DNA from: Sarea resinae
Taxonomy: Eukaryota
Assembly (NCBI GenBank): GCA_026026165.1
Contig: JAPEUD010000047.1
Location: forward strand, 124,001-188,000
Direction of reading: 5' to 3'
Length of the DNA: 64,000 nucleotides
In this document: piece by piece, positions 7,138 through 37,529 of the stretch
How the letters are laid out: every line of letters starts with the position of its first letter
How positions within the stretch are numbered: the stretch's first letter is position 1
Notes under the pieces: generated by a model
Databases searched by the model: none
What the model was told of the DNA's origin: nothing
What the model saw: only the letters and a program-made list of their open reading frames with translations
Translations under genes and position numbers: made by a program

Positions 7138-9351
7138 CTAGCAAGCACTCTTTCTAGCGCTCCTCCTTGGTGGTGACACGTGAAAGGTCTCTTCCCCTCC
7201 GGTATCCTTGTTTGGTTCTTCGGCATCGTTGTCCACCCAAACTTCCAAAGCCCCCTTTCTGCGCTTACTGGGGCTAACGGAAGGGGCATGATCACGTTCG
7301 GGGCAAAGATAGCGTCGCTTGGATGGAGTGGATCGCCCACTCAAAGCACTGTCACTTCGCGGGGGAGTTGGGAACTGCAAGCTTTCGCGATCTTCCTCCA
7401 GCCTACTCTTTGTAGGAGTAACAAGAACTTTGTTCGTCGAGTCGGCGCCTCTTGCACGCAAAACAGTTCGACCGGCTTGCTCAGCAGGTACCGCGCAAAG
7501 CAATTCTGCTCTGATCTCTGAGACTGTTTTACGTGCTGCTCGTTTGGCCTTTTCTCGCTCCACTATCTCCTTCATGGACTCTTCTTCTCGGGCCTTCATC
7601 TGACCTTCGGGTTCAGCTTTTTGCTTAATCTGCCTCGACTGATTCTTCTTCTCCACCACACCTGTGACCAGTACGGACGCGTTTAAGGATCGTCTAGACT
7701 TCCTCGGCGCCGCTTTCCTTACAGCGTCCTTGCTCTCCACTATGGAATGTAAACCAGGCTCTAGGTCGATACCATTGAGGATAGCTATTCCTCCTGGGCC
7801 GAACGGCGCTGCAGTGTTGATTGCCGATGCGTTCGAGGTCTCCTGCTTCGGTTGTTTCCCGCCTGGCGCACCTTTCTGGGGGGATTTCCTTACTAATGTC
7901 TTGTGCATAGCGGGCACTTTCGGTAGTATGTTGGCAGCTTTCTCGGCAATTCTCTTCTCAATCACCTCTTTCATGGTCGGCTTTCTCGCAATGCTTATAG
8001 CCTGAGCCGGAATATTCTCTTTGTCGCTCTCTGAAATTGACTTCGTACGGTCTGCGGCTCTGGTCGGATCCTTCCCTCCGTACTTTGTCTTCGGCCGCTT
8101 ATTTCCGCTTGCGGTCTCCAATTTCAACTCGCCCTGCCGCAACCACAAATCTCCTCGACGTTCTTTGAGGTCAACTACCCATGTATCGCAATCCATTTCA
8201 ATCCACCAATCAATCACGTCATTCCAAACACTCTCAGGTGGCTTGGTGGCGTTGACGAAAATCACTTTCCCCTTTCCACGTCCACGAGCGTGAACTGATT
8301 TTGCGAATTCTCTCACTAAAACTTTTAAACCATGTACTCGGAGTGATGTCCCGAGGATCAGTAAGAGATCAGGCCCAAGGCTCAGGTCGCTGGTGGTCAT
8401 CGGTGAGAGTAGGCTTGCCATTGGATGTTCCTCCCCGTAGAGTACTACATTTGGCCGCAACAGCCCCACTGCAGTCCCCCTCTTACCCCGACCTCGGCGG
8501 TCATTGTCCTTCGAAGCACAGAATTGGCAGGGCGGTGATTTACCCCGTAGGAATGCCTCTTCTCGATCCTCATCGTCCCAACTGCACAACCGATGGCAGA
8601 GGCTGCAGCGAAGAACCTTCAGATCACCATGTAATTGCACAACCTCACAACCTCCATCCATCTCATGCCCTGGCAGGATTAGTGCATCAGGCCTAGCTTT
8701 CTCCACTACCTTTTTCATGAATCGAGCCTTGTTTCCCTTGCCCCGATTGAGGTCGAGATTGAGGCCCTCACGTGATTCGAGCCCGTCAATGTTCTGCGTA
8801 TAGCATCTGACCAATTTCCCTCCGTCTCGAAGCGTCCGTATGAACTTATGCGTCGGCGTAGTGTGCTGAACATCGAGAACCTTCCGTCGCAGCGACGTGA
8901 TAAATTTGCAGAATATCGACGTACTTTCTTCGCTCTTCCAAATCACAGAGTCAAAAAGGTCCTTTCCTTTGATGTTGCCGGGTAGACTATCTTTCCGACT
9001 GCGTTGAGAGAGTGTGGACTCTTGGGAAGAGCTGAACGTGTCATAAGTGTCTTCCAATGGAGTGGTTGGTCGCGTAGGATCGGGCGCAGAGAGCTTGCCC
9101 CCGAAGGCCGAATCATATTGGGACTGAATCAATGAATATAGGCCATCCTGGGAGCGAAAGTCCTGTTATGACTATCAGCACAGGGAAAAGTACCAGGACA
9201 TTCGCAGGTTTGATCATCTACTTACCGGAATGCCACAATTAGTGCTGATTCCTGCACCCGTAATCATAACGACTTTCTTCGCACCAGCCAAAGCGTCAGC
9301 AACATCTTGTAGATGTCGGTCATCCGTAGACTTGACGTCCAGGGTAGGCAT
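7138..9351 (-). CDS. HST3: NAD-dependent protein deacetylase, sirtuin Hst3/Hst4 type
   Basis: Exon 1 (9351-9226; MPTLDV…TGAGISTNCGIP), a 63-nt GT-AG intron, then exon 2 from 9162 (DFRS…). Sirtuin motifs present: GAGIS, YTQNIDGLE, QLHG, Zn ribbon CSLC…CQFC, LRPNVVLYGE and GTSL. Long basic C-terminal tail. Confidence 0.9.
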
Positions 9352-14316: not shown

Positions 14317-17300
14317 CTACTCCGTCTTGCTCTTGGCCGACTTCTTCGGCACACGAGCGACCCAGTAAATAGCGACGGCGGCGCAGATGTTGAAGATGAT
14401 GTAGATCCACATGAAGCCAAAGTTCCTCCACCGTTGAGAGTAATGGGCGTTGATTGAGGCCAAGAAGGTATTCGTGGAAGAAATGGCACAGAATTGGCAG
14501 TCAGAGGTAGCAGACGGGTTGGTGACATAGCCACCATTGGTGCTGATGTACTCGGAGAGGTATTTGGCGCAAGTGGAACCGTTCGGGGGGTTGAAGTGCC
14601 GATATTCAATCGAGGAGCAGACAACCTTCGTGTTTGCGACAGCGGTCGAAAGCATGGCGCTGACGAGATAGGTGAAAGGTGAAACGCGGTACATGAAGAT
14701 CCAGAACCCAGGGAATGTGCCGGGAGCCGCGATGACACCGCAGAAAATCAGAGTCAGAGAGAAAAGAAGATTGGCAATGTTGCCTCCAGTCTCAGCAGTC
14801 TCGATACCAGCAATAATCATGTTGGTAAAGGTCGACGTGAAAAGCATGAAAGTCCAGATGAGCAGGAACATAAGAGCTCCACGCTCATGGACAGCGCCCG
14901 TAGGTTCTGCATTTCTATACAGTCCAATAGGATAGTACCAGCAGAGAAACATGACGACAGCCATCAAGCTGTTCCAAGGCAATTCAACAAGAATGTTACA
15001 GAGCATGAATGCTTTCCAGGAATAGGCCTTTGACGGTCGCTCCCGAACTTCATACAACGCACGTTGAGTAACAAAATGAGGCATGATCTGTTGGACGAGA
15101 TTGCCGAAGATGGTCATGAGCATGAAGATGGAAAACATCTGATTCTGAAGACCTTGTTGACTGTTCTTGGCTTTGAAAAATGAGAAGCCGACGAATAGAG
15201 AAGTAGAGAGGCAAAGGGCGAACTTCGAGTAGATGTACGACGGTGTGCGCCAGTATTGCTGGAATACACGCTGCGTGCATTCATACACCTGAACTGTCAT
15301 CGGCGCCGCGAATTCGCTGAGGGTAGTCTTGTCTGCAGGAGCGGACACGGTCTTATGAAGAGGAAGGTCTGTCTTCATCCGAGCAAGCTCATTCCGAACT
15401 TCAGTTCGTTCAGGACTGTTATTCCAGGTTTCAGGCCAGTTGATATCACTATGAGATCCAGGAGCAGCACCAATAATTTCCAACATCCACTCCGCAGGGT
15501 TAGCTTCGGGTGGACATGGCGGAGCGCCGTTGCTCTCAAAGTAGTTCGTTAGAATCTTCGAGTTCTCGCCAACTTCACCGAAGTATACTGTCCTACCACC
15601 TCTTGCAAGGAAAAGCAAACGGTCGAAACGCTGAAAGAGCATAGCTGAGGGTTGATGAATAGTGCAAAGAATGGCTTGTCCGTGATTCGTGAGCTTTTCC
15701 ATGAGATCGCAAATTGACCAAGAAGTTTGACTGTCAAGACCAGATGTAGGTTCGTCCAAGAAGAGTAGAAGCTGGGGCTTTGCAGCGAGTTCCACTCCGA
15801 TAGTGAGACGCTTGCGCTGCTCGACGTTGAGACCTTCTCCGGGAACACCGACAACAGCGTCGGCGTACTCTTCCATTTCTAAGAGCTTGATGACCTCATT
15901 GACGTAATCCATCTTCTCTTTGCGGCTCACATGTGCAGGCTGCCGCAAGACCGCACTGAAGTTTAGCGCTTCTCTGACCGTCGAGGTTGAAAGATGCAGA
16001 TCCTGCTGTTGGACATATCCTGTTTTGCGTTGGAAGGAATCGTCACGTTGACGACCATCGACCAACATTTCTCCCGTAACGACACCCATTGTCACACGAG
16101 TTGCGAGTACATCCAAAAGAGTTGTCTTACCGGCACCAGAAACACCCATCAGTGCTGTAAGAGTCCCGGGCTTGACCCAGCCGTCGACATGGTCCAAAAG
16201 TCTTCGAGGCTCGCCTTTGATCTTGATGTCGTAGCACACGTCTTGCCAGTGAAAAATCGCAGTTTGCTTCTGGATGACGGCAATAGCGTCATCTGATCCA
16301 TTGCCTTTTTCCGCAACAACCGGAAGCTCGGCCGTCGCTTCGATATCACCGGATTTTGCGGCGGCCTTGACAGACGCAGGTGCGTGACCACGACGGAACA
16401 ACAACACCTCGCCCTTCGATTTTTTGGCTTGAATAAACTCGGTAGCAGATAGGTAGGTGAAAGTCAAGAAGAGGAAATATCCAATCAGAATACCAAAGTT
16501 TCTCCACTTGTGGGCTTGGTAGTACTCGAAGCTTGCGTTGATATAGGCGTCGCCATTGACAGTGGGTGAACCTGCTACTGCTCCAGCTACAGAGCACGCT
16601 CTAGACAGACCAGTTACAGTCTCGTAGCCAGGACCACTAGGTACGAATGCAGCACAGTCGAAGGTACGCTTGTGGAATTCGTTAACCATCAAACTTTCGA
16701 AAGAATATGCCAGAGGGTTGAGGTAATTGATCCATCGAGACCAACCCAGCATGTTCCTTGTCGGAAGAACGAAACCGGTGTAGATGACAAGTGCGAGAAT
16801 CAAGATCGCCGCCGGTGCCATGGCCTCGGAGATAGACCTGGAAGCTGATCCAATCGTACGGAAGACCTGCGACATCACCATGGTAGAAGCGAATGATATC
16901 AAGACGTAGAAGAAGAACGGGCCCGGTTCACGTCGTAGATTTGTCAGAAAATACAGAGGCAGATTGAAAGTGAAGGCGTTCGTAATCTTATATGGCATGT
17001 CGCAAAGCATGGATGCTATAGCTTCGACAGACGGGTGATATAGCGCATACCTGGCCTGCTTCTCAACAATCGGTCGTTGGGCGTAGAGTGTCAGAATCTC
17101 CAAAGCGCTGGAGAATGCATTGAGCAGGACTGCGAAGAAAAGCAAGGAACCCCTCTGGAAAAAGCTGGCCGTGGTATGCGGCATATTGTAGAACACACTT
17201 CCGACGATTAGGGACATGGCAAAATTTCCGAAAAGAGCAGTGAAAGTTAAACTTGGATCACCCCTCAGTCGCTGGAAACCACGAACGACGCAAAGGCGAA

Positions 17301-18996
17301 TTTGTTGACCGAACGAGAGAGTATAGGGAGATTTGACACGCTGCCGTTTCGCTTGTTGTGCCCTTCGAGAAGCAATGAATTTCTGAAGCTGCTCGCCACC
17401 AATGGGATATTGCTTTTCGTAAGACTCGATATCACGCATCAATTGCGCATGAGTTTCACTTTTCTTCCAGGCTTCGGCAAACTCGTCCGGAGTGCGGGGA
17501 ACGCGATCTTCCCAGCCAGGTTTCACGACACGCTCGGTAGCACTGGTCAAAGAAGTAAGGAAATCTGCAGTCGTTTGGCGATCGGGACAATGGAAGCCCA
17601 TCGTGGTGAAAAATTCCTTAGCGTCAGTTGTGCGACCAAAGTAGATCTGGCGACCCTCGTAGAGAAGCACGACTTTATCAAAGACATCGTAAGCACTCTG
17701 GGATGCTTGGTAGATAGCCACGCAAGCCGTAGCTCCGAGCGATTCGGTGGACATCTTGAGCGTCCTACAGAACTCGAGAGCGTTTGCACTGTCCAGACCA
17801 CGTGTGCTGTTATCCCAACACTGCAGAGGGCTACCGCAAAGAGCAGCCTCAGCAATACTGACCCGCTTGCGTTCTCCTCCCGAGACACCTCGAATGTAGT
17901 CGTTGCCAACCCTTGTGTTGATGGTATGGCCTAAGCCAAACATCGCCATGACGACATCCCTAAGGTGAGATGCATACTGCTTTTTCGAAACGCCCTCAGG
18001 TAGGCTGCGAGGAGCTCTAGCTTGAGCCGCGAATGAGAGAGTATCTCCTACACTCAGCTGGGGGAAATGAACGTCCGTTTCGGCAGTGTAAATGGCCTCT
18101 CCACGAAATTGGCTATGCATTTGCTTGGCGCTGATGCCTATTTAGATATATCAGTTAGAATTGTAATCAAACGGAATCACTTGCACTGCGCATTTCGACA
18201 TTGCTCACCTTGGTAGTTTATGTAAGATTCCGAGTCAACGTAAATGCCATGAGTCTCTCCAGCGATTGTCTTTAACAATGTCGAGCATCCACTGATAGCC
18301 ATCCGTAGTCAGCACCGCGAATCCAGGAGTTGAGAACTTCACCACTTACCTTCCCGGTCGTCCAAGCACGACAAGCATCTCACCGCTGTGGACGAGACCT
18401 TCAAAGTTCCTCAGAATCTGAATCTTTGTCTGGCCTAGTCCCAACATCTTGCGGATTACGGCAGGGCCTTCCAGCAGAACATTTCCGACGTCCTTCTGAT
18501 AGTCGGTCGGCGTCCCGTATCCATGGACATTGAGATTTTTGTAAGCGATACCAGCTGTTCGTTCGGGAAAAAGGTCGGGGTCACGAGATTGGAGCTTCAG
18601 TAGAGCCTTGACCCAAGCCTTAGCACTAAAGTTCGGAGAGTTGGGGTCCAAAGCGCTATCCTTCTCTCCCGTGAACGGGTTCGTCCATTGACCGGAAGCC
18701 CCCGACTGCTGGGTCAATTGGCGTGCCAATCGACTGACTTGTCTCGTCGCTCGTGAATCGGGGTCGAATTCGGGCTCCTCATATTCACCATCCTTCTCTT
18801 CTAACACACCACCTTGCTTTGCCTCGGAGTAAGAGCTGTCTGATCGACGTTGGTTGGCGGTGGCGCCAGACGCGAGGGTCGAGGAGTCGGCGCTGTAGGG
18901 ATCATGACGGGGAATGAAGGCATTCCCGTCGTGGCCCGTGCCCTGAAGATGAGACTCGCGATCATAGTTGATCCCGACGTTACCGACGAGAGCCAT
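14317..18996 (-). CDS. Full-size pleiotropic drug resistance (PDR/ABCG) ABC transporter, Pdr5/Cdr1-like, ~1516 aa, 3 exons
   Basis: Exons 18996-18350, 18291-18209 and 18137-14317. NBD1 has the degenerate Walker A GRPGSGCST, signature [13 protein letters not shown] and Walker [14 protein letters not shown]2 has [16 protein letters not shown] and [11 protein letters not shown]. Topology is NBD-TMD-NBD-TMD. Confidence 0.97.
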
Positions 18997-21900
18997 TTTG
19001 AAATATTAAAGTAAAATATATCTATTATAGTGATTTTGGGATTCCAAGTCTAGATTGAAGAAGAAGAAGGGGGCGAGAGAAGTGGCAAAAGGGCCGAAAG
19101 AATGGAGAGAACAGCGATGATCTGGCACTACACGATTGTGTAGGAGACCAGTCACGTAGCTGTGGTCGGGCGAGATGGCAGCGGATAGAAGACGGACAAA
19201 CAAGAAAGAGAAGGAGAAGAAAGATTGATTAGGTGTAGAGAGAGAAGATGAGAGGAGATATAACCAACGGATGGATGACTGGAGAGCAAGGAACCGGGGC
19301 ATCGATTGGGTCTAGGGCTGGTGCACTGTAAGGAGCTGGAGGGCGAGAAAAAATGTGGCCAATGGGCATCAGGACCGCGTGGTGTCTACTGCCTAAGCAT
19401 ACGGTAGGTACGAAGTACTCAGAGCCCAGCCGTGTAAACAATAAGTACCGAGTACCGTCGACTTCTCTCCGCTTTGCAGTACTACTACTACGGGTAGAGG
19501 AGAGTCCTGGTAGCTATCTGGAATCACTGTGTGCTAAGGTACCGTATGGATCCATCGATGTAGGATAATACCTACAGAGAGACCTGCTCGTCGATCAAAC
19601 AAACCGTTCCGGGTTCTTTAGTCTGCTGGGCTATCTACGGGTCAGGTACTCCAAATGGGTAGGGGGTACTTCGTACATTCGCCCATTCGTTCCCCCACCC
19701 CACCTGGAACGGGGAGTCCATGCAACCAGCAGTAGAGTACTCTACGGAGTACGTACGAAGTACCTGGTCATCGATAATCAATCGCTTATCTCATCTCCCT
19801 CTCAACCACATGCTTGCGGATACAGGTAGTCTGTACTTGTTCTCGTTGGAAGCATTCGGGATCAGAAGCCTACCGACTCAGTGTACCCCTGACTTTGAGT
19901 GGGGGCTGCAAGAGGGAGCAGAGAAATAGAGAGTGAGAGGGACATTTGGACGGGCGCGGGAAAGGTCTATCGGAAGATAACGTTCCCGGCCGCCAAGTCG
20001 TTCCGTCGCCTTCGACCCGGTTCGGTCAAGTTTCTCCACGTAGCGTATCCGTACCCGTTGTCGAGGACTCACGATCGAGGGCATCCTAGGGCAAGCAAGG
20101 CCAATGTCAAAGGTCAGCAAGCTAGCCGACGTACATACTATGGTACTGTGCTGTCGGTTTTGCCTGCGGATGGACGAACATCCGCCTTCCGAGGCCGTTG
20201 CTCCTGCTGGCTCCAAGGTACTACTTGGTCCGAGGAGCCCCTCTTCGGCCTCATCCAGATGGAAATCTCACTTTCCGCCGCTGCTAGGGTGCACTACAGC
20301 TCGTTGCTTGGTAATATCTAATGTAACTTCCTTGAGGGATCTACTTTAGGGTCCGCACAACAGGCTTGGTCACCCCGTCCGTACCAATCGAAACCGTCCG
20401 TGCTTTTTTCGTGACGCAAGCTTCTCTGACCGGTGCCTGAGTCGTTTCTCGCTATACCCAGACGGAAAATTGGTGTCAACTAGAGGACCGTGTCAAGCAG
20501 ATAAGAGTATTGGAGGGACGAGCTGGCGGCCGCACGCCCGCACGCTTTGCATGCTTTGCACCCGCCATCCATCAGCAACCCAGACACGAGTTAGGCGCAA
20601 CCACGTCGAATTGGCAAATCGCCATCCGAGCTGACATCAAGTTCTTCGTACCAAGATCTACTAACGCTGCACATACTACGTAGTACCCACTGGCACACTA
20701 CTTGCTTCGCCACCTTACTCATGTCCACTGTTCCTCCTTACTCGAGTGATCCCTGCAAACTCATTTGCGGCAGTCCTTCCCTTGATTGTACTGTACTCTT
20801 GGCGTACTCTTCACAAATGCCGTAGATGCAAGTCAGATAATATTCCACCCCAAAAGACAGCTCCTCGTGCTGTAGAAGTACTCGTATTGCTAGTATATCG
20901 GAGCACGACACTACTGCGTGCTACATACGGTATCCATGGAGGTATCTCCCCCCCCTTCCTCCCCACCGCCCCTGTCTGCCTGTCTTCTCAATTGACTCAA
21001 CTGATAGGAGAGGACATAGAGTCCGATGCGGTGTATAGGGCCGCATAAACTGTCGATCAAGCTGTACTCCGTACTCCGTAATATGAAAGGTGGCGACCGA
21101 GGGACCTGCAATGTACCACAACCAAGAAAAAGACACGATAAATCAGGAGCCTTGCTATTCTAATCTTGACGACCAAAGTAGCAGATGGTGCATAACATAT
21201 CTGTATGAAATCATCAACTTCTATCTTCTGCCTAGAAAGGAACGTTGGGATCATAGAACCTACTGCATTCAAAATGATATCAAGACACGAACCAATAATG
21301 AAAGTGCGAAATCCCGGACAGAGATCTGGTGGGGTTTTGGTCGGCTACGCATGTCGCACGATCGGGGTTGTGAGTCTTACTACTGGGATAGCGCCGGGTA
21401 ATCGGAGACGAACAACTCTTTTTACACCACAGGAAGTTGATCCCGAGAATATTCAGCAACAAATCAATACTATGGCATGTTTGAGCAGTACAAGCACAAG
21501 ACAAATGAGATGAGTATTCCTATTTATAGAGCATACGAACGAAAAGAAATGAAGCAATCAATTTTCATTTCTTTCTTAAGCTCTATGGATCATTATGGAA
21601 CTTATTTGGATATAATTATCGTATAGTCACAGGTCTCTAAATTGCCAGGGACCGACCAGTAAGGAATCGAGTACTGATCTCGACGAGGATGAATCACGTT
21701 CGTTTTCATCGTTTCCTCTTCTGTGATTGCACCAAATGCGCTGCTTACGAAGTTGTTTGTAGTCCCTTGATTTCGGAAAAGCATTCATGATACTGTTCTA
21801 CGAACGTTGGTAGCAATTGGTGCTGAAAACACCGCTAGAACCTGTGCGTATTGCTTACTCGAACTCCCGTAGAAATGAGAACGGTCACCCAAACTTTGAA

Positions 21901-23825
21901 CCCGGGCTGAATCACGAATAGCTAACATTTATTCCCCGACTTCGGATAGTCAGCTACTTCAAACCAAACCACACTTTTTTGCCATGAACCTTACAAGAAG
22001 GATCCAAGTCGCCGGTCATAACAGGCTGCGGTACAAGTCTTGACGACAACGAGATTGGTTAGGAGTCTGTCAGAATTGTGAAGGACAGGTCCTGGCAGGT
22101 GTTTCAAGAACAGGGCCTGCCGCGATGCTTTCGACGCCTCTGGATTAATGAAGCGGGTGTATTGCCAGAAAGATCAGATGATAAACGTGAGTCGTGGACA
22201 ATGAGGTCTATAAGATTTGTAGAAAGGTGGGGGTAATATTCCAGGTTGGCTCATTCCGAAGAATGGTGGCCAAAAGCACGATCATTCCCTATCTTGAGGT
22301 ATTCCGAGCCCTTTGTCGTGAACGATTCAATTTTTTTTTAAAATTATAAAGATTTGTATAAACGATAAGACCTTAACTCAAAAAATGGTCCGCTAAAAAT
22401 TAGGCAGATGCTGCCAATATCAGAATTGTCAATGGCTCGACTCGGCTCGACAACATGGCAGATTCCGATATGAGGTTTGCTGCTTGATCACTGATGTCGA
22501 AATGACTGATGGGACCGGAGATCAAGGCTACTTTCACTATTTCAGTTTGATTTAAGGCTGGGATCGCTGGGCCCTGAGAGCATACCTTATGCAGTACAGA
22601 CCTGGGGATATTATTTGCGAAATATGGATATGGATATTCTGCATCTGGTAGATCAGCTAAATGTTAACAGTGGCGCAGTACAAGCAAGCGCTCACGCTCC
22701 GGACAATTTCATCATAAGGCTTCTCAAAGGCCAGTGTATAGCTTGGGCAATGCTCCCGGGATGATGTGACCCTGCAGCGATGCCGAAAAGAGGCCAGAGG
22801 GGTACAGTATTGGAAGGAAACCCTTTCAAGCTTTCTGCGATGACCTGTCATGTCCGTACTGATCGATATAAGGCTAGCATGATCGGCTGATGGGGTATTG
22901 CGTATGGCAAAACGACAGACGTATGACACCAAAGGAGAATCTAGAAATCGATTGGCAAGCAGATGTGGAGGGTATCTTTCGACCCATCAGAGTTGCCTTG
23001 CTGTAATGTAGAGCGAGCTCCTCCTCGTTCACAGCATTACTCAAGCAAGACATTGCGAAAGGGGGCTCTGCAGCCAAAGAGGGATCCTTGGAGACCAAAA
23101 GCGTTGATGATGGTTCCCAGAGTCTTCCGAGGGGCATCCGATGTCATGAACCCTCAGGGCCATAGTGGGGTCTGTTCCAGATGTGATTCCCGCTGGATGA
23201 TATACCTCTCGTTCAAAGAGACAACTTCCAGATAGACCATGATAGCTTGGATCAGAACAGCTTAAGCCCTTCCATGAGCGGCACTCGTAGGGTGATTGAA
23301 TCACAGCCGTGACAGCATACATTGCTAATGATTTAGATCCCCGGGCAATGGTGGACCGTACGAGGTACCTTCGTACTTCGTACTGGTATCAATGATCCAT
23401 TGGATACATCCATACGAGTGAGCTGTCTGACACAGCTCTGCTGCCTAAGATACTCCGTAGACCCTGGCGCTGTTACCTTCCAACGTTCCAACACCACGCG
23501 CGGAGAGACACACCCCAACCGTGACACACAGCACAGACACAGCACAGGCTGCGCGGCACAACATGCATGGGCAGACCTCTACTATGTAACTCTCCTCCAC
23601 CTCTGCCTCTGCGAGTAGCTCATGGCGATTGTTATTACCTGCCAAGCAAGACAGCATTATCATATTCTTCTGACTTCCGTCTCGCACCTGGATGAGTTAT
23701 GATCAATCATCGCGTTCTTTATGTTACATGAATGCCTCTTCATTGGAATTAAAGAGGACCAACGTCGTAATCTGAATATCTCGAATATTTGAATAGCCAC
23801 CCTTCCTCCGTCAAGAGTCAAGACC

Positions 23826-25391
23826 ATGCACGACACATCAAATCTCGCAATCCGCCTCGCAAGTACTTCCGACGGCCCCGCCGCCGAATACTTTCATCAC
23901 TCCAGCGCCCAAAGAGTCGACACTGACGCCGTCATAATTCAAGCCATCGAAGCGCAATACCCCAACAGCAGCGTCGTCATTGTACCCGAATCCGGCTGCA
24001 ACCTATTGGCTTATGCAGCATCTGGCCGCGCAACGGCCGTTCCCCTCCGCGAGGACAGAGATGACAGCGGCATTTCGACATCGTTGAAATGGCGTCGGTA
24101 TGTCCCACCCTCCCGAAGGATTGATGGCGCATTTGGCGTCCTTGTTGAGCAGGTTCGGTTTGGCAAATACCAATATACTTGGCGCGATCATGTTTTCTTT
24201 CTCTATGTCGTTGATGGCCGAGACGGAGGTGGTGCCTTTCCGCACGTGAAGAACAATTACATCATCGGAGAGGAGAAGGAAATTAACCAGCTGATCTCTT
24301 GGGTCGGCCAATACGATTCTCAATTGCATGATGAGGTGTGGGTTTTTTATGGAGGATTCTGGCAGAAGGACGCGGCTTTGTATCAAAGTGTGCAGAAGTC
24401 TTCGTGGGACGACGTCATTCTCGACAAGAACATGAAAAGGACTATCAGAGGCGATGTGGAGAGATTCTTCAATTCGAGGTCTACATACGCCAAGCTGAGG
24501 GTTCCCTGGAAGAGGGGCGTCATTTACCATGGCCCACCGGGAAATGGCAAGACGATATCTATTAAAGCAATGATGCACAGCTTGTACAGCAGACTTCCCG
24601 CTGTTCCCACTCTATACGTCAAAACACTAGCAAGGCAAGTCTCCTCCACATGCTACGAGGCTTGAATTCAGGGGCTCAACGTCTACAGCTATGCTGGTCC
24701 CGAAGCCTCCCTACACCAGATTTTCTCCAAAGCACGCCAAGAAGCCCCTTGTCTCCTCGTCTTCGAAGATCTCGACAGCATAGTAACCGACGGAGTGCGG
24801 TCCTTCTTCCTCAACGAAGTCGATGGCCTCTCCTCGAATGATGGCATTCTAATGCTAGGAAGCACCAACCATCTCGACCGCCTCGATCCGGGCATCTCTA
24901 AGCGCCCCTCCCGCTTCGATCGCAAGTACCTCTTCCCGGACCCCGACCTGCCCCAGCGCGTTCAGTATGCCGAGTACTGGCGCGGCAAACTGAGCGAGAA
25001 TGAGGAGATCCAATTTCCGACGAGGCTTTGCGGAGCGATAGCACGGATTACCGACGGCTTCAGCTTCGCGTATATGCAGGAAGCATTTGTGGCTACGTTG
25101 CTGGCTATTGCTGCCCGTGACGGTGAAGATGATGAAAGTGGCGACGATGAAAATGAAGGTGCTGAGAAGGACGAGGCTGATAGAGCAGGTGCTAAAGTTG
25201 AGGCCCTGGCACGAGAGATGGATCTTTTGAGTTTCTGGTACTCGGTGACAGGACACCCGTATATATGCTACTCCGCCGACAAGGACCTCGATCAGTATGT
25301 TCTTTGGCGAGAGATAAAAAAGCAAGTGAAGATCTTGCGGGACGAGATGACGGACGAGGTTGAGAAAATTAAGGTCGGTATACAGGATTAG
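23826..25391 (+). CDS. AAA+ family ATPase, 2 exons
   Basis: Walker A GPPGNGKT, Walker B LLVFEDLD, sensor/SRH STNHLDRLDPGISKRPSRFDRK. Probable GC-AG intron at 24635-24688. Confidence 0.92.
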
Positions 25392-28300
25392 GAAGGGCAG
25401 GTTATCTCGTTGATTCCTTATTTTGACATGGTCGATTGATTGACCCTTCATGTATCACCTCGCATAGTATTTGCCACCGCGCACAGTGAACATCTCGGCC
25501 TTCAGATATGGGTCCTGTGGTTGAACTTATGTCTGTTCTTCTGAGGCGGATGAGCATAAAGGGTTGGGCTGTTCATCGAGCATTGTGATAGCGAGAAATG
25601 GTTCTGCGAACGGCCTTTTTCCCTTCTCCTTGAGTGTGGGCATAAATAACAAGCCCGATGCTATGATGTTCAATACTTAAATCTGGTCTATTTGCTCTGC
25701 ATATCAACAAGACGATAAACCCATGATACCTACCTTCTTTCTATCGAGCGGGATCCAAAAGATGTCCTGACGTTTCAAGTCAGTACGGACTTTCTTGGCG
25801 ATGTCATTATTGTTGATATAGTGGGCAGGCAACACCCATCTCTTGTCCCCTTACTTACACTAACCTGACATATCTTATCTCATATCCACCTTACCCCACA
25901 ATCGGACCGACTACAGTACTCCGTAGCTACTGTACCGCCCTGCCCTGCATTAGCGTACCCTAGACACGCGGAATAAACTCGCGGGGTCCTCTCTCCCGCT
26001 CTCTCATCTTCAAACTTCCATTTCCCATCATTTGTTTCAGCGCGGCACCAGCTCTCTTCTGTCTCTCTCTCCCCCTCGTCGACTCCTATATGACGTATTG
26101 GCATTATCCCTTCTCTCATTCCCTCCCATCTCCCGTGGCTCATACCGGCAACACCACCCAGAGCTCTCGCATCCTTTCACCGACAGAAGCGTAGGCTAGC
26201 TCTTATTCGTCCAGAGAACTCGAAACACGGAAGACATGTCCGCTTTCTTGGATCCATTCCGCAATCCGCACTCCCTATCACATCTACCATCCACACCACC
26301 CACACCATCCCGGGAAGCGTTCATGTATGCAGTACGCCACGACCCATGGTATCGAACCGCCTGCATGCCCGAGCCGCGCGCGGGGACGATCCGTAGGCAC
26401 GGGCCAGACTGGACTGGACTCGAGTACATAGTCAATTGGACAGAGGCCTGGGGTTCCATATTCATGCTTGGAAGAAGCAGAGGCAAAGATAGGGGGTAGA
26501 CATCTAATAGATAGGTAGGTAGGGTGACTAATCTGGCTTGGTGGGCTACCTAGTCGGGGTAACATTGTAGAGAAGATGGGAAGAGAGGGGAACAAAGGAA
26601 AGTCGCAAGATGGGTGAGCTTGGCTTAGCTTGGCCGACGCTGTAGACTCCGAGTAGAGTATGCAAGCTTGATAAGAACTGGAGCGTACTATCCATTTTAC
26701 CAGTAAGATACGTAAGCAGATGGCTACCGAAGTAGTGATGATGGGATCACTGTAAGATAGGCCGGCTATTGTTCTCTAATCCTTTCATCAAGTTACGGGA
26801 CTCATCATGAAACAAATCGCTAAGACCAAGTGGCCCCGTCCCCTTCCCCGCCTTCTGACGTAAGCTACCAAGGCACTGGGGACGAGGCGGGACCGGAGAT
26901 GCCTCAGCAGCAAATGAACGCACTCGAACGATCTTATGCATAGATGTTTTCCAATCCAGTGGCTTAACGGGACGGTACGAATAAAAAAGATGACCAGTTG
27001 GGCAGAACCAAGGCAATGGGCAAGCCATTTCGATTCCCTTCACGTGCGACCGTAAGGCCAATTGGTACGGTATTTGCTGGGATTGTGGAGGGTGTTGGAT
27101 GCCTGCTGACTGTGTGCTTCTGTGGTGAGAGGCGCTGGCTGGCTGGCTGGTTGGTTGATTAGTGCGGCTGGGAATACTGGACTGGTAGAGTGGAGTAAGG
27201 TGCGGAGCACGAAATACAAGTAGGGAATGGTATGGTATGGTATGGGAATGAGATCGTTAAGAAAGTTGGTGGCTTGGCTTTATGAAACTCCGTGTGCCTG
27301 GGCCCCGAGGTCTGGATCATATACCGCGTCCGTACTGTACTCGCAAGGCTCGTACCGCTTGTGATATGATGAGGTCAGGTATGTGGGAGGTCTGTTGACG
27401 GGAAAATTGTGGATGCTTCGAAAGCATTACCGGATTGAACCGGGGCTGGATGGTTCATGACGATATACGTCGAGGTATCCCAGCACCAAGGTCAAGAACG
27501 TTCGGGAAGCAGGACGATAGTACTGAGATTCGATAATGGGATTGAATTTGGGGTATCATCTAACGACTGCAAACACATAAGAGAGGAACAGGAACCCCAC
27601 ACACGCCAGAGTGAAGCAGAGCGATGCCCGCATCCCGAGCCCGAATGGCATCATTAAAGATATCTACCTAAGTAATATAATGCAGGGAAACCACCAACCA
27701 CCACCGATAGTAAGCGAAACCAAATCCCACCGCAGCCGTGATTAAAAAAGAGCCGCGAAAAGCCGACACGGTGGTGAGAAGTAGACCAGCAGATGACGCA
27801 CGACGAGGAAACGAGGCGCGCAATAAATGGAACCCCCATGCAGATCGAGGCAGACAGGCTGCAAGATAAAGATAAGCAGATATGGCGAGTGGAGAAAGGC
27901 TGAGCGTATCGCGCGAAGATTGATACGGAATGGAGACGAACGGGAGGGGCGCGGATATGAATGCGCGCCGAACGCCCTGTAGTGCTATTATTTTTGGAGT
28001 TGGTGGTGAAGATCCATTCTTGTTTGCTGTTGTGCTTGGCGGGCGGTAAAGAAGAACTGCAGCCACGTGCTGGTTGTGCAGGGGTATGTCGGGGTCATCT
28101 CGGATGTTGGAATCGAGCTGAGCCCAGACGATGACCCTGATACAAGGAAGACCATCTCGTTGTGACCTGCTGTGCCGCGCCGTACAAGGGCTAGAACAAG
28201 TCCGGATCTTGCAAGGCGTTACGCGCGTTGCTGAGCTGAGCTGAGCAGACACGGTGCAGTTGCGGCATCCGACCAGACCGAATGCACAATTATTGCAGGG

Positions 28301-28981
28301 CCTGTAATGAAGATAGATAGCCGAAGTGGATGAAGTCGTGAAGCAAGCAAAAGCAGGGCAGCCAAAGCAAGCAAGTAATCGAAATAAGCAAGCAAGCTGC
28401 ATATGTCCGACGATCGACGTTCCCGACTTGTTTCGAGATCCTCGGAGCAGTGCCCCTCCTTTTGCCTCCCCTCACCACCGGTACCCTTGTTGGACTAAAT
28501 GAATTATCCCATGTCGAGCTTGTTTCGTTCTGTTCCGAAAGGCGTATCCATTCGCAACCGGTGCCCGAAGAGATTGGGAGGGAGAGATGATAGGGAGACT
28601 GATCCGCGAATGATCGTAGCGAGTGGAATATCGGTAAAAACCGGTGCCGGGGTCGTCATTGACGTCGACTTTGATTATTGAGCAAGGGAAAAAATCCCAT
28701 CATCACATCACATGGCTTGCGCGATTCGAGCTTTCGATCATGCCACGCTATCATCGATGTCGTCGAATGTACGAGCCCCGGTATCTCTGGAACCGGTTCT
28801 CTCTGGGACACGGCGCCGCGCAGCAAGGCGCGTCAGATCGCCAATGTCGACGAGTGAGGGGTGGTTTGGGGGTTGATTTGGAAGCGAGTGTCTGATTGGA
28901 GCTTGAAATTCCGAGGAAACTTGTTGAAACCGCCATTGGGATGCCTGTGAGCGAGGAAGGTTGCTATCGATGAGCACCAAT

Positions 28982-29068
28982 TTACTTTGGCACTGGAGGC
29001 AGAGGCCTCGTTGGCGGCGGGCCCGGGCAAGGCGGGTATTGAGTAGAGCCATTGTAGTGGACAGGCAT
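28982..29068 (-). CDS. Putative proline-rich microprotein, 28 aa (MPVHYNGSTQYPPCPGPPPTRPLPPVPK)
   Basis: The ATG is in a strong fungal context (TTCAAAATGC), after an A/C-rich ATG-free leader with a CATAAATA TATA-like element ~170 bp upstream. The peptide contains RPLPPxP. It is below the ORF-track size cutoff. Confidence 0.6.
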   Translation of the reverse strand: MPVHYNGSTQYPPCPGPPPTRPLPPVPK

Positions 29069-32000
29069 TTTGAAGTGTTTGGGTTGGGGGACTTGACTCG
29101 AGAAGGCTTCGAGGTAAGAATGGATTATGAAGTTGGAGCTATAGACGTGCAAGTCTTGAATGTTTGTTTTGATGCGGACTTTGGAATGCTAGACGTGCGA
29201 TGAACTACGAGCAGACGGGGGGCCGGGGATTCCACAGGTATTTATGCTCTCACTCTCCTCCTCATCTCATGGAAATGAGTCTCCTCCCAAGCCAAATGAT
29301 ATTTTACGAGCCGCCTGTAACAGGATAGAGTCATAGAAGAATTAGTGGGCGGACTATTTGCGGCGCCATCGGCGGCCGGATCCAAGGAACTGGACAGGGC
29401 TACGGGTATGACCAGGTACGAAAGTACGTACCCAGCTGAGAGAGTACCACGTACCGCACTAGTTGCTTGGCCCATGTCAGGTAGGGCAGGCAACAGACAC
29501 ATGGGACGATATTGGGGGGGAAAAGGGTGGGAAACTATTGAAGGTATGAGGTATTCAGGGGTGGGGTGGGAGGGTGTGTTTGCGACTGGCGGTTCGATGG
29601 TTAGCTGGAGGTGAGATAGGTCAGGTCAGGTACTTCGTACCTTGGTACTAAAGGTAGGTTGACCGAAATTTGACAAGAGCCGGCTTATTCGAACTAGGAT
29701 TTAGGGTACGAACACGTAGGTACGAGTACGCGCACGAAATTGATGATGCACAATGGAGGTTACCAATCTCCATGATGGACTAACGTTACGAACGCAAGTC
29801 CCGTTTTAGGATTCTGTGACACCTGAGACACACAAGGCTGAGCAATCCGTCCATCTGCTGGACGCTGCCCTGGAGTCGGAGCTGGAGATTTGGAGTACTC
29901 GACGAATAGAGCACTCTTTCGTAGCTGAAGACAGCACCTGAGAAAGGAATCAGAAGCTTCGAATCACGAGAGCCATGGACTGGGCTCCTGGGTTATCTGT
30001 TGCTTTGCTACTATGCAATACTCTCCTCTACTCGTACTCTACTCGACTGCGCACAATACTCCGTGCGCCATCCTTTCCATTCCTATCAAGTATTGTAGTC
30101 TACCTAACTCTGCACTGCCCTGTACAATGCTGCCCTGGCTGGCCCTGACATGGCCTCGTTCCTCTTTGCGGCCTACTACACAGACTACTTCATACACCCA
30201 CGCACTGGCCCGATCGTGCCTCGTGAATACATAGTAGAGACAATACTTCGAATTACTCTCGACGAATCCCACGCGCCTTGACCCTTGCATACCGCCTAAA
30301 TGTGGCTTTGAACTCGTATCATCACTGACACGGCATGACAACTTTGACTGTTCCCCTCATGGCTGTGTAACCGCTGGCTGCTTCTAATATTGTGATCTGC
30401 CCTCTCCGCCCCCGTAACCAATATGCGTGCTCTGATTGTATCATCCCGGATCGGCCGTGACCCGCAATGAAGATCCGTATCACGAACGAACGACGACTTA
30501 CCAGGTACACCGACAAGGCTGATAGTGGAAACATGTGTTACAAGTAGTGAGAAATGGCCAAAAGGCGGCGAAGGTACTTGGCGGCATGTCTCCTGCACCC
30601 AGCAAATTGCGATCAGACGGGCAGAACGGGCAGACAGGTCTCGCCGAGCCATCGCGTTGCGCGGCTGCAAACGGAAAATGAGGATTTTCCTTCGAGTTGC
30701 GTCACCGCCTTTCAGAAAAGGGTGGATCTCAGCTGAGGTGCACCGTACAAGATTGGACGGGGCAGGGGTCGAAGACACTGAAAGGGATGTTGAGCGCACC
30801 AGATGACCCAGCCTCTTTGCCCAACTGGGCCCAGCTTGGCCCCAACTAACGACCAGTACGGTATCGTCGCTCCCGTACTGCCCCTGTCTCAGCAAAATTG
30901 AATGGTGGCGATGAGTTTGAGCTCTGAGCCATGAACATCCGCGAGGTACCTTTTTCCCAGCACTCACGGTGTCACAAAGGAGACGAAGAAGAAAAAGAGA
31001 TGATTCGAAAGGAAGTTTCCGTTCCCCAGAAAACGTGGCTAGCGCGAACTAGTCAAGGGGAAGGGCACACTCTGTCCGATTTACACCCTTCAACCTTTGC
31101 TAGCAGCAGTCGAAGGGCGTTGAAAACGTCTGTCTGACCCGAGAGCCCGAGTTCTCCTTCGGAGCCTAACGGCTGTCTGCATGCCACGACCACGATCTAG
31201 AGTAGGGAGAACGAGCAGCTTTAGAAGAAAGTAATCGCTACACCATGATGACGATGGTAGTTGAAATTTCATCCCTTCTGCTTTCTGCCACGTACTAGGA
31301 TAAACAAACAGATACAGTCAGGCAGGTCAGCAGGCCGAGAGGCGGTCAACGACAATCCAGCCAGCACAAGATGATAGGCTGGGATTGGTGACCACCGAGC
31401 CTCCTTTCCCTGGTTTCCATCTTACTCCGTATGCTCCGAGTCTCTGTCTCTTGCGCAAGCCGACTCGGACTCGGCGGCGCACCCAAGAAAATTGTTTGCG
31501 GTGTGTGGAAATTACCTGCAATTTGATCGCTATTCGCTAATCTTAATAATCCTACGTCCCAACCTATTTTCTTCTCGTCTCGGCCTGGATCATCCCACTA
31601 GCAAGACTTTGCACAAAGAGATCATTCTCTCTCCTCTTGGCATTCTAACGCCCGAGCCTCATGGTTGAGTCAGGTGCTTGTATCAGATATTGCGAAGAAA
31701 GATGCTAGGAATTATCTGGTATCATCGAATGACCTTGTTCTCCATTCCTTGCAACGAAGGTAGCTGACGACTGTCGACAACAATCCCTACCTTAGATTGT
31801 TGGACAAGATCGGCTCTACCGGCAGTAGTGTGTAGACGTGCCGGCCGTAATGTCCTGAGTCTGCCGTTTACAGACTACAGTCTCCCGAGCGTATCGCCCG
31901 GCTCATCATCTTGCCTCGACATGGGATGGTAACGGTCTCTAACTTCATTTGCATCCCACGTCCGAAGTAGAGTAAGTGGTACAACGCATTCATATTCAGT

Positions 32001-34637
32001 TGCCGCGTTGACTGTCTGATGAGCTTGAAGACCATGCGATCGCCAGATCATTCTCAATCTAATATATCGATTCAAGGCACCAACTATAGGTTTGTACGTA
32101 CGTGCTCGTAACGGTCAGAGCAACGATCAACATCTGCCCTGCCCTGCCCTGAATGAGGTGTGTGCAAGTATGCAAGTGTGCACGGCTGTGTCACGCAGAC
32201 CGCCACATCCTCTCCAGAACCAGGAACAGAGACAGCCGCACACACCTTTTCGGCAGTATGAAGTACTCCGGCGTAGAGTACTCTACCTTGACCCGAGAAC
32301 CTCCAAAAGCTAAAGACTACGTACTCTTCTCTCCTTACCCTCTCCGTTCACACCAGCGCGATCTCCGATCCTTTCAATCCTCGACGATGATCAGCCGGCC
32401 AATCTCTTCTCTCCAGAAGCATCCTAGATGGCGTACCTGAAACGCCGACTTGGCTTCGGTGCTTGCCACCCATCCAGACAAGCACTGCACGGAGTCTCCG
32501 TTCGATCGAGTACGTACCCTCCAAAAAGATTGCTTTGGAAGTTTCGACGTTTGGGCGTTTTGGAAGACGAGCGAGCGAGCTCTCGTAGCGCCCGGCCGGC
32601 CAGGCCTGACAACGACTTAATGCGACTGATCCGACCAGGGCCGGTCATAACTCACCGCCTTTGCCTGTCTCCTCCGCCCCTAAACTACCTGAGGTCACCG
32701 GACTTCCTTCGGCGAGACTACCTAGCCACTGGCAGACGAGACAATAATGATGATGTCTTTGTTGTTTTGGAAGCAAACACTCTATGCCGACTCGGAGCTT
32801 GCCTCTCTCCTTCCCTCTCCTACGGGCAGCAATTAAGCAATTGATTGTCTTCTCGTGCCTAGCAGATCGTCTAACGCATCTTTCTCATTGTTCTCATTTC
32901 CCTCAGGGCTATATCCGATGGAATAGGGTAGAGCAATCTCCGCCATGTATTCACGACTTCCGAGTTCCGAGCAGCACCAGCATCACCAGCTGCAATCAAA
33001 CCGACTTTGTCCATATGAGCATCTCATCCACAGGTACAGTACAACTCATACCCGATGATACCATCCCAGGCAGGCAAGGCTTTGTATATGGAAGGCCAAT
33101 CAACCAGCATATCGCCCTTGACAATCTCCATGCCTGTCCTCTGCCGTGCGTAGTATGTGCCATACCTCATACATCCACCCATAACACTCCTCTCTTGTTG
33201 CCAATGCCAAGCACTCACGCACGACATTCATGCATTCCGACGTACAGGATCAATCATTCTCGAAGGATTCAACTTACAGCGACCACCTGATCTACAGATG
33301 TTGTGCTCCCTACATACTGTGCCCCTGCCTCCCCCCCGTTTGATTTGACCCCGCATGTGGGTCCCGAGGGATTGAGCGAGGGGTACAACCCGATACTGAA
33401 CCACTATTGAGTATCATGGCGATGAATGTACTATGAGTAGGCAGCATGTAGCAGACAAGACTATGCGTCCTGCAAGTCACAGTGCACCACGATGCCGTTC
33501 GTGGAGCAGCCCATTCAATGGACTGGGGCACAAGGATAAAGAGCATATCCCACTCTACCTCGTCTTACTTGGTACCTCATTGACGGAACTGAAACGCAAT
33601 TCACGGATGGCGCGGAGTACGGATGAGATTGGATATGCAGGTATGGACTCATAGCGATAGAGTACTATGTAGTGTGTGTATGCTTTGCTGTTTTGTTTTG
33701 GGGGCGTGTGCTCGGATCATTCCGGTTTCAATGCTCCTCTATCATGGCACCCCCTCCCTTCTCCACCCCCTAGTTTCAGGGTTCCTCTTCCTGTGCTTCA
33801 TCCGCCTAGAGCGATATGTGTATGTACACACTCTTTCTGATGGATCATTATGGATGGTGCATGGTGCACGGTGCATAGTGGGATGGAAGATGGGGGATAA
33901 CACCACATTGCATTATCGTTCTGCCTAACCAGAATCGCATGATCGCGCGAGTCAACGCCATGGCTTTTTAACATATATTGATTTTCCCCTGAGAAGTGGA
34001 GGGCGGAAAGAGGTAGTTTGGTCCGTGTCCGCGTCCGTGTCTGCATCTGTGCCTGAACAAGCAGCGGTCCGGGCGTCTGAATTTCGTTTGCTTTGAGCTG
34101 GCTTTGGGTTGTCTTTGTCTATTGACATTCTCGTCTTGTGAAGCATGCCACGTTGTCTGTTGCGCTTTTTATGATCTGTTTGCTTCTATGGTGGCACATT
34201 TCACCTCTATGCGACAGTGTCGGACCACCCCACGTCATGGCTGAGCCACTATCATCATCACCACCACCACTACCACCATCCAAGGTTGCACGGAACAGTT
34301 GTAAGGGCTAGGTTGGTAGCCGAAGTGCAATGATTCTACGGTGGTGAATGCATGCCCAATCCGGTAGATGTCGTGGGGTTCTGAGCACGCATCTTAAGCC
34401 GATAGATGCCAGGGCTGTCTGTCAGAGGCGTAGGTAGAAGCGTGTGCAGCTCTAATACATGATGTGAGTGTGACCTAGTGCATGGGGTCGCATAGTTGTG
34501 GTCGAACGATAAGCTCATCAGGAAGCTCACGGTCATTGCCACACAAATATCTCGGCAGCTGCGGCGCGACGAAACAGTTCTTGGCGATGTTCAACGAGCC
34601 AAAAGCAAAGCTCGTGGCTCTGTGATCATCGATCTCG

Positions 34638-35556
34638 TCAACCATCGTCAGCTTCCTGTTGCGCTTGCGTAGAAATCCATTGCTCCATCATGGCTTGTCC
34701 GCCTGTGATACCTGATCCACCTGCAGCAGTTGTTTTACTCTGTCCACCTCTGCGTTTGACGACGAGACAAAGGACACGGCCATAGATGGCAAAGCCATCA
34801 TAAAGAGTACTCAGCGCGAGCTTCTTCTTGTCGTCTGTTGAGCCGACAATACCCGTATATGAGCCATCGCGGGGGCCACCTTTGCTTCTTTTCGCCGGGG
34901 GGGAATCTCGCTGCAGCTGGATGGCGTCGTCTTCCGATTCTTCAGAGTCGTGTAGAAATAGACTGTCGCTGTTGTGACGCGGTCTTTTCCTCTGTCGGCT
35001 AGAGGGACCTTCTTGCTCTTCTGTTTCGTTTTCTGTGACGGCTGGAATGTCGGCCAATCTGATATTTGCCTCGCTTTCGTCGCTCTCTTCCCGGATTACT
35101 ACTGGTGCCGCATCGTCCTCAATTTCAACAGGCCCCTCTTGCGTCCCAGTCAGCTTCGATGAGTTGCTTTCCAGTCGTTGGGGCTTGTCTCTGAATATTT
35201 TCTGCTTTGTCAAAAGAGAATGGCGGGTAGAGATATCGGTCAAGAAGATAGACACTTCGAAGTCATCTATCACGCAGCATCCAGTCAGCTGGATTCTAGA
35301 TTCTTTCACATTTGAGCGGCACACCTTCAACGACAATATCCTTGACACCCTTGTTCTTCTTCTTCGCTTTGGACTTCTCGTTCTCTTCTTTGAGCTTGGG
35401 TAGGATAAGCGGTCTGACGCTGTCGAAGACTCGAGGTAGGACTGGATCGCGCGGATTCAATAGCCATGAGTTGGCGATTGCGGGATTATCTAGATAGATA
35501 CGACATTCGAGGACACTATATTTCGAAATTCGCATGTATCGCCGGATCGGCGCCAT
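34638..35556 (-). CDS. Fungal hypothetical protein, likely conserved and nuclear, 2 exons
   Basis: Exon 1 (35556-35325; MAPIRRYMRISKYSVLECRIYLDNP…KDIVVE), intron 35324-35267, exon 2 (DDFEVSIFLT…YDGFAIYGRVLCLVVKRR…MMEQWISTQ). Basic clusters RKRPR and PAKRSK are present. Confidence 0.8.
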
Positions 35557-35947: not shown

Positions 35948-37529
35948 ATGGCGCTGGAGCTCCACGTTTGGGGTCCGGCCTTCTCTCTCCCATCAATAGA
36001 CGCAGAATGCATAGCAGCAATAGCATACTTCGCCCAGACCGTGCCTAAAGACGAATGGGTCATCATCGCGGACAGTGACCCAACAACGAGTCCCACAAGT
36101 TAGTCTCTGTCTCTCTTCTATTTGTTCGTCCTGAAGCATGCAATTAACGGTCAACTTCCCCAGAACAACTGCCCGCGCTGAACCACAATTCGACCTGGAT
36201 ATCGGGCTACCAAAACATAATCATCTACCTCGCACATATCTCTCACGGCGCGTGGGACTTGGACGCTCATCTGTCTCCTTCCCAGCGCGCAGATAGCTCC
36301 GCGTAAGTGCATTATATACCCGTCCTCTACTCCTCATCTCTTCAGCTGAACTAACGCCCATCCCCAGCTTCTCCGCCTTCCTGCGCTCCTCCGGCCGTCC
36401 CCTCCTCGACCTCTCCCTTTACGTCTCCACAGAAAACTATGCCAGAACCCGCACAGCACTGACCGCGCTCCTCCCCAGCCCGACACAATACATAATCCCG
36501 CCCTCCGTGCGCGCCGCCGCCCTCGCTCGTACCGACCACCTCGGCCTCTCGTCCCTGGACCTCGACACCGAACAGCCGGCGCCGAGCACAACGGCATCAA
36601 CAACACCAGGATCCGAAAGAGGGCCCGAAACAGCAGCAGGAGCAGGAACCGAAAACATCCCCGCGCGCCTGCTACGTCGAAATCCACAGAATACACTCAC
36701 GTCGCTCTTGCGCCGGCCAGAACACGCCTCTCAGTTCCGGCTCAACGCACTCACCACGCCCTTCTTCTCGCCTCTCCAAGATCTCCTCGGCACTAAGTCC
36801 TTCCTCCTCCATTCCTCCGAGAAAGGCGGCGTCTCAAGTCTAGATTGTCTAGCCCTGGGCTACCTATCCTTAGCGTTATACCCTGACCTCGCGCACCCGT
36901 GGCTATCGGAAACGCTCAAGAGGTCTTTTGCGCGCCTGACCGCCTACGTGCACGAGCTGCGCGATCTATGTTTCGGATCAGGCGGTAGAGGGGACGGCGA
37001 GGGAGAAGGAGACGCAGCACATACGTCATCCCTGCCGTGGACGTCAAAGGGCGGACAGCAAGCGGGCGACAGGCTAGGCATGCTAAGCCGTCTCCTGATG
37101 ACCCAGATCGCGGACGCTTTACCAGTCCCGAAGCCTTACAGCCAGCGCTTCGTGACATCGTCTTCCCCGTCGTCTTCCTCAGGTATCTCGTCGTCGATCT
37201 CGGCCACCGGCACTGCTGCATCGTTATCATCACCACGGTCTTCTTCTGAGCATCCCGCCACCCGCACCACAACCCCGACCTCTTCGACAGCAGCAAATCT
37301 CACGGCCCTCCTCACGCTCGCAGCAGCTGCCACGTCCGCCGTTCTGGCTTTCGCCACATACACGCACTTTAGCCCCTCATCATCATCGCCCTCGCCGACT
37401 TCGTCATCGGCATCGTCATCATCACCATCCTACGCTTCTCCCCAGGCAGAGGTAGATCAAACCAATGCCAACAATCTCTCCAACATGGGCGAAGCAGGCG
37501 CGACACTGGCTTCTATATTCGATCTCTGA
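35948..37529 (+). CDS. SAM37: Mitochondrial outer-membrane SAM complex subunit Sam37/Tom37 (metaxin family), 3 exons
   Basis: N-terminus MALELHVWGPAFSLPSIDAECIAAIAY. Introns 36099-36163 and 36303-36367. Contains LLDLSLYVSTENY, the metaxin GST-C-like SSLDCLALGYLSL and a C-terminal hydrophobic anchor. Confidence 0.85.

Follow-up and report, generated by a model that had tools for sequence, protein, structure and literature searches.

A 28-codon open reading frame (ORF) on the minus strand of a 64-kb window, the whole stretch of DNA analysed here, shares a sharply bounded block of 26 residues with a small hypothetical protein of the lichen fungus Lichina confinis, and the most conserved run of that block holds a class I SH3-ligand motif. 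Our tentative reading of these sequence comparisons is that the ORF may supply both the beginning and the conserved core of a disordered protein that is small, restricted to its lineage and longer than 28 aa, and that it is more likely to be an exon than a finished 28-mer.

The open reading frame and its surroundings

Four features define the locus.

28982–29068, minus strand: ATG-started ORF of 28 codons with a TAA stop, from translation of the window
28988–29008, minus strand: RPLPPVP, residues 21–27 of the ORF, which fits the class I SH3-ligand pattern [RK]xxPxxP
29069–29238, minus strand: A/C-rich leader with zero ATG, from base composition and an ATG scan
29239–29246, minus strand: TATA-like CATAAATA, 178 nt upstream of the ATG of the 28-codon ORF

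The ORF translates as MPVHYNGSTQYPPCPGPPPTRPLPPVPK, followed by the stop, and its start context is CAAAATGC (CAAAATG). The minus-strand leader, taken from 29260 to 29069, is ATG-free and consists of 36% C, 27% A and 14% G. Translation and base composition thereby bear out the preliminary description of this DNA, which had claimed a 28-aa minus-strand ORF with a CAAAATG start, an ATG-free A/C-rich leader and a TATA-like box, all of which are present. The canonical class I SH3 consensus that it had reported within the ORF is present too, as RPLPPVP satisfies [RK]xxPxxP. Three features were absent from that description: a GTAAAT lying over the stop codon, an overlapping ATG-started ORF of 104 aa and a stop-free frame of 101 aa. 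The 104-aa ORF (28738–29052, minus strand) lies in another frame and overlaps the 28-codon ORF; its ATG is found 16 nt downstream of the leader's first ATG, in the context ACAATGG. Scored for codon usage, the 104-aa ORF reaches 0.054 per codon. The 101-aa frame (28833–29138, minus strand), which lacks any Met, spans both the ORF and the candidate second exon described below, with codon scores that are mildly positive throughout. It starts just past a TAG that is also readable as an acceptor AG.

The window is fungal. Pfam families identify one of its long ORFs as an ABC transporter of the PDR/CDR type (14317–19005, minus; ABC2_membrane 8.9e-93, PDR_CDR 4e-38), and ordinary fungal genes lie elsewhere in the window: a Sir2-family protein (7138–9165, minus), a Tom37/GST_C-like protein (36297–37529, plus), an AMP-binding enzyme (52859–54100, minus) and an AAA ATPase (23793–25391, plus). 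Across the approximately 9 kb around the 28-codon ORF (25.5–34.6 kb), a Pfam family was found in none of the three tested ORFs of at least 250 aa (27668–28471, 30296–31048 and 34638–35456), and an Rfam search over 25000–35000 returned nothing. The stretch from 25500 to 34600 is also marked by a strong strand skew, with an AT skew of 0.38 at 27500–27999. No family was assigned to the 267-aa stop-free frame at 27668–28471 (minus), whose codon scores are low and whose strand is poor in A; it is probably non-coding.

An ORF of 28 codons, taken alone, is no more than chance in this window, which holds 518 ATG-started ORFs of at least 28 aa, 331 of them between 28 and 59 aa. The loose motif is likewise common: [RK]xxPxxP is carried by 20 of the 518, and the six frames of the window contain 83 class I matches, compared with 71.7 ± 8.4 in 100 block shuffles. 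In proline share, the 28-codon ORF ranks first among all 518 (39%, with the runner-up at 33%), whereas local C content predicts a share of about 13%. The strict form of the motif, RxLPPxP, was found three times in the six frames of the window against a shuffle mean of 0.46, and only one of 100 block shuffles reached three. The other two matches in the six-frame translation are RYLPPLP and RSLPPPP.

Codon usage does not decide whether the 28-codon ORF is coding. Its codon score of 0.076 per codon lies between the mean for 28-codon pieces of seven real genes (0.121, sd 0.09) and that of the 331 short ATG ORFs (−0.018, sd 0.091), 12% of which reach the score of this ORF. Scores at the site are alike in all three minus-strand frames (0.08–0.10), suggesting that the codon score there points to composition.

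A block shared with Lichina confinis

An exhaustive HMMER search of 1.84 billion representatives, with the 30-aa frame 29074–28985 as the query and E values up to 0.001 accepted, returned a single match, KAI9750389.1 (E 2.1e-4, 36.6 bits, 77% identity). This 73-aa protein, annotated as 'MAG: hypothetical protein M1815_001830 [Lichina confinis]', contains SPGPPPTRPLPPLP and is the sole member of its own 90% cluster; L. confinis belongs to the Lichinomycetes, within the Pezizomycotina. When KAI9750389.1 was compared with the window by tblastn, the match covered 29062–28985, with 20 of 26 residues identical and 25 of 26 positive.

28985–29062, minus strand: 26-residue block common to the ORF and KAI9750389.1, from HMMER and tblastn

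The consensus of the block across both species reads V[HN]Y[NS]GS[TS]QYPP[CS]PGPPPTRPLPP[VL]P[KQ]. Its most conserved run comprises 11 consecutive identical residues, PGPPPTRPLPP, and over the block as a whole 10 of the 15 non-proline positions are identical between the ORF and KAI9750389.1. The motif, RPLPPVP in the ORF and RPLPPLP in KAI9750389.1, was thus kept in one of one relative found, a retention that lends thin support because of that count. The edges of the block are sharp: it begins two codons after the ATG of the ORF and ends at its last codon, and in both species it sits in an ATG-started frame. Residues 1–15 and 42–73 of KAI9750389.1 had no convincing match in any frame of the window, indicating that the similarity is an island and does not reflect a general closeness of the two genomes. 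Conservation of the block in L. confinis, RPLPPxP included, argues that the frame is coding. It also gives substance to a suggestion in the preliminary description, that similar peptides occur among hypothetical proteins of filamentous ascomycetes; one such protein was found, the 73-aa L. confinis protein, and it has RPLPPxP. The proposal that the cysteine of the ORF is lipidated or redox-sensitive fared less well and loses its basis, as KAI9750389.1 has serine at that position.

The strength of this match depends on how its proline bias is handled, a point on which HMMER and BLAST disagree. The HMMER score and the E value of 2.1e-4 already include a bias correction of 8.4 bits, and in a local phmmer comparison the ORF match scored 35.2 bits, whereas the runner-up among 1,991 six-frame segments of the window reached 8.6 bits. 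When the ORF was shuffled 20,000 times with its composition preserved, the score never exceeded 81, compared with the observed 127, and Gumbel extrapolation gave P = 6e-8 per pair for the ORF and KAI9750389.1. Under composition-based statistics (modes 2 and 3), BLAST left the match between the ORF and KAI9750389.1 unreported at E values up to 10, and with SEG masking just 9 residues aligned (E 1.4). We consider homology between the ORF and KAI9750389.1 to be probable, not certain, on this evidence.

The kind of constraint acting on the block was gauged from its six amino acid differences. Five of these are BLOSUM62-positive, compared with 17–20% of possible single-base missense changes (binomial P of around 1e-3), a test that is biased because the match was itself selected by score. 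Each of the six differences is reachable by a single base change, and a non-coding piece about 90% identical between the two species could therefore give the same picture. In the reading that we tentatively favour, the 26-residue block would be the only part under constraint.

Other searches for relatives yielded little. A word-index protein search with the 68-aa stop-to-stop frame (residues 29–68) found no match among proteins of 37–119 aa or of 120–2,000 aa, and when KAI9750389.1 was the query it returned only itself. The same search missed the 73-aa KAI9750389.1 despite the 11-residue identical run, so its blanks are unreliable for proline-rich queries and carry little weight. Metagenome DNA scans produced 597 and 592 pattern matches, of which tblastn confirmed none. 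Exact look-ups in a collection of 15 billion proteins were negative for all ten translations submitted, namely the 28-aa ORF, the 104-aa ORF and eight ATG translations of neighbouring or long ORFs, four of which come from the Sir2-family, Tom37/GST_C-like, AMP-binding and AAA ATPase loci or from loci next to them; ORFs as short as 28 aa are rarely annotated.

These results have to be weighed against the possibility that there is no gene here, and that a chance ATG ORF has arisen in a C-rich, gene-poor stretch. The likeness to KAI9750389.1 would then stem from proline-rich sequence of low complexity or from a short non-coding piece that is conserved, with the Lichina entry being an automatic gene model that lacks support. 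Such an account sits comfortably with the 518 ATG ORFs in the window, with the lack of a Pfam family in the three ORFs tested from the surrounding 9 kb or so, with a codon score that is not frame-specific and with the loss of the match in composition-corrected BLAST. It is also compatible with the six single-base differences, which nucleotide identity of about 90% could yield without coding constraint, and with the recovery of one match among 1.84 billion representatives, itself an uncharacterised MAG gene model. It has more difficulty with an HMMER E value that is already corrected for bias, with identity at 10 of 15 non-proline positions and with a similarity that is confined between the ATG and the stop of the ORF itself and that, in L. 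confinis as in the window, occupies a frame opened by an ATG. The ATG-free leader, in which the first ATG to appear is in a CAAAATG context, likewise speaks against it. Taken together, we regard the absence of a gene as unlikely, if a serious contender.

Product length and a candidate intron

If the ORF belongs to a small protein, as we tentatively suppose, its length becomes the next question. The preliminary description took the 28-aa product to stand alone, a status that is put in doubt by two findings: the annotated length of the sole relative is 73 aa, of which 32 aa follow the block, and the stop codon of the ORF overlaps a possible splice donor. The features concerned are as follows.

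28945–28985, minus strand: candidate 41-nt intron, GTAAAT...CTCACAG, with GT...AG borders and a frame that stays open
28833–28944, minus strand: candidate exon 2, comprising 36 codons plus a split Lys codon, with a TGA at 28833–28835, proposed from codon score and tail likeness

The donor-like GTAAAT (28985) overlaps the TAA of the ORF, and the acceptor, CACAG, ends at 28945. Excising the 41 nt would create an AAG codon across the junction and extend the frame by 36 codons, for a product of about 64 aa. No other segment nearby scores as high in codon usage as candidate exon 2 (28944–28836), at 0.178 per codon versus 0.121 in real genes. Its similarity to the tail of KAI9750389.1 (NGG..K..PR) was matched by 137 of 2,000 shuffles at gap costs of −11/−1; at more lenient costs, which were tried after the alignment had been inspected, the numbers fell to 20 of 2,000 (−8/−1) and 10 of 2,000 (−6/−1). 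Exon 2 may thus weakly resemble the KAI9750389.1 tail, with p ranging from 0.005 to 0.07 by gap cost.

The splice signals of the 41-nt candidate are weak, with no G at +5 and no CTRAY branch site. Reference introns were taken from the ABC transporter gene (18349–18292 and 18208–18138, both canonical), where removal of the first restores a Walker-A stretch across the junction. These introns are 58 and 71 nt long, with donors GTAAGT and GTGAGC and branch sites CTGAC and CTAAC located 17 nt from the AG, and the candidate is unlike this sample of two in donor, branch and length. In the ABC transporter gene, the upstream open frame likewise ends at a TAA inside its GTAAGT donor.

Alternative ways of extending the ORF were also explored. 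All 46 donor/acceptor combinations failed to yield a convincing match to the tail of KAI9750389.1, and comparison of this tail with the three downstream frames remained at chance level (431 of 500 shuffles reached the score). A 185-nt alternative intron that uses the only CTRAY (CTGAC at 28836) and yields 75 aa was rejected: its tail is unlike that of KAI9750389.1 (approximately 1,000–1,290 of 2,000 shuffles reached the score) and has a codon score of about 0. We also set aside, as chance, a 10-residue likeness of the KAI9750389.1 N terminus to a frame at around 29254, where an in-frame ATG is lacking and the position is already upstream of the TATA-like box.

Should the gene be real, we would give the 64-aa form roughly even chances, regard the 28-aa form as doubtful and consider some other form less probable again. 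Across all explanations, we judge it rather improbable that the TAA is used, splicing does not occur and the ORF encodes a stand-alone SH3-ligand microprotein of 28 residues. Conservation that stops exactly at the last codon, weak signals in the candidate intron, tails that are not robustly alike beyond the block and a conserved motif are each in keeping with such a product. The annotation of the sole relative, which reaches 32 aa beyond the block, weighs against it, as does a candidate exon 2 that combines a high codon score with a weak tail likeness. The exact 28-aa sequence is absent from the collection of 15 billion proteins, a point softened by the rarity with which such short ORFs are annotated, and the cysteine proposed to be functional is not conserved.

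The SH3-ligand motif and comparison with known systems

The motif inside the most conserved run is the only functional clue to the ORF, which makes docking on an SH3 domain the best available reading of its function, and we infer from the motif that the block docks in this way. The preliminary description had gone further and proposed that the peptide competes for or regulates proteins with SH3 or WW domains, a role for which motif resemblance is the basis. A Pfam scan of 13 long ORFs in the window found no SH3 domain, and Pfam assigned no family to the 28-codon ORF, the overlapping frames or KAI9750389.1. PDB chains gave no match at E values up to 10; in the Atlas, the best score was 0.79 for KAI9750389.1, and the ORF was without a usable match. 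A search of the literature on SH3-binding fungal microproteins found nothing relevant.

In the reading that we prefer, that of a small disordered protein longer than 28 aa, we infer translation, splicing and SH3 binding of the product. The transcript would begin on the downstream side of the TATA-like box, and the leader's first ATG, in its CAAAATG context, would open the frame. Removal of 28985–28945 would then join the ORF to 28944–28836, producing a protein of about 64 aa. Within this protein, the 26-residue block would form a polyproline-II stretch and its RPLPPxP core would dock on an SH3 domain, so that the protein could serve as a small adaptor or competitor. A bolder proposal, to which we attach little probability, is that a free peptide of 28 to approximately 75 residues, with a class I SH3 ligand as its only conserved feature, might act by diffusion, as a decoy or an adaptor, to modulate SH3-dependent processes. 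The processes envisaged in this improbable scenario would be actin patches, endocytosis and osmosensing in filamentous and lichen-forming ascomycetes.

A conserved-peptide upstream ORF, in which proline runs would stall ribosomes and thereby control a downstream main ORF, is very improbable: runs of PPP and PP, which pause ribosomes, do occur in the conserved peptide and the ORF opens at the leader's first ATG, but no credible minus-strand main ORF follows within 3.5 kb downstream, where the stop-free frames have codon scores around zero or negative and belong to no Pfam family, and the relative is itself annotated as a small protein.

As a small disordered protein, the product of the ORF would be an addition to the broad class of PxxP-bearing disordered proteins, and its novelty would be modest. 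If translated, it would be little more than one docking motif, providing a simple test case for free-standing short linear motifs in fungi, and it would illustrate that conserved genes can hide below the usual annotation cut-off of 60 aa. If not translated, the locus would be an example of proline-rich chance frames that mimic ligand motifs. No long-standing open question is directly touched, and one relative is known in either case.

Among known systems, the arginine attenuator peptide is a conserved-peptide upstream ORF of fungi. The 28-codon ORF resembles upstream ORFs of this kind in having a conserved peptide of approximately 25–28 codons that begins at the leader's first ATG; unlike them, it has no downstream main ORF. 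Its closest counterpart is KAI9750389.1, with which it shares the 26-residue block and its RPLPPxP core, small size, the lack of a Pfam family and the position of the block near the N terminus. KAI9750389.1 differs in its 15 extra N-terminal residues and its 32-residue tail, neither of which is recognisable in the window, and in having serine where the ORF has cysteine. In yeast, a motif in Pbs2 is bound by the SH3 domain of Sho1. Known class I SH3 ligands are short motifs within larger proteins, whereas in this ORF the motif would account for much of a tiny product. In sequence, RPLPPVP of the ORF and RPLPPLP of KAI9750389.1 both fit the type I SH3-ligand consensus, which is given as RPLPPLP in a passage of PMC11842026.
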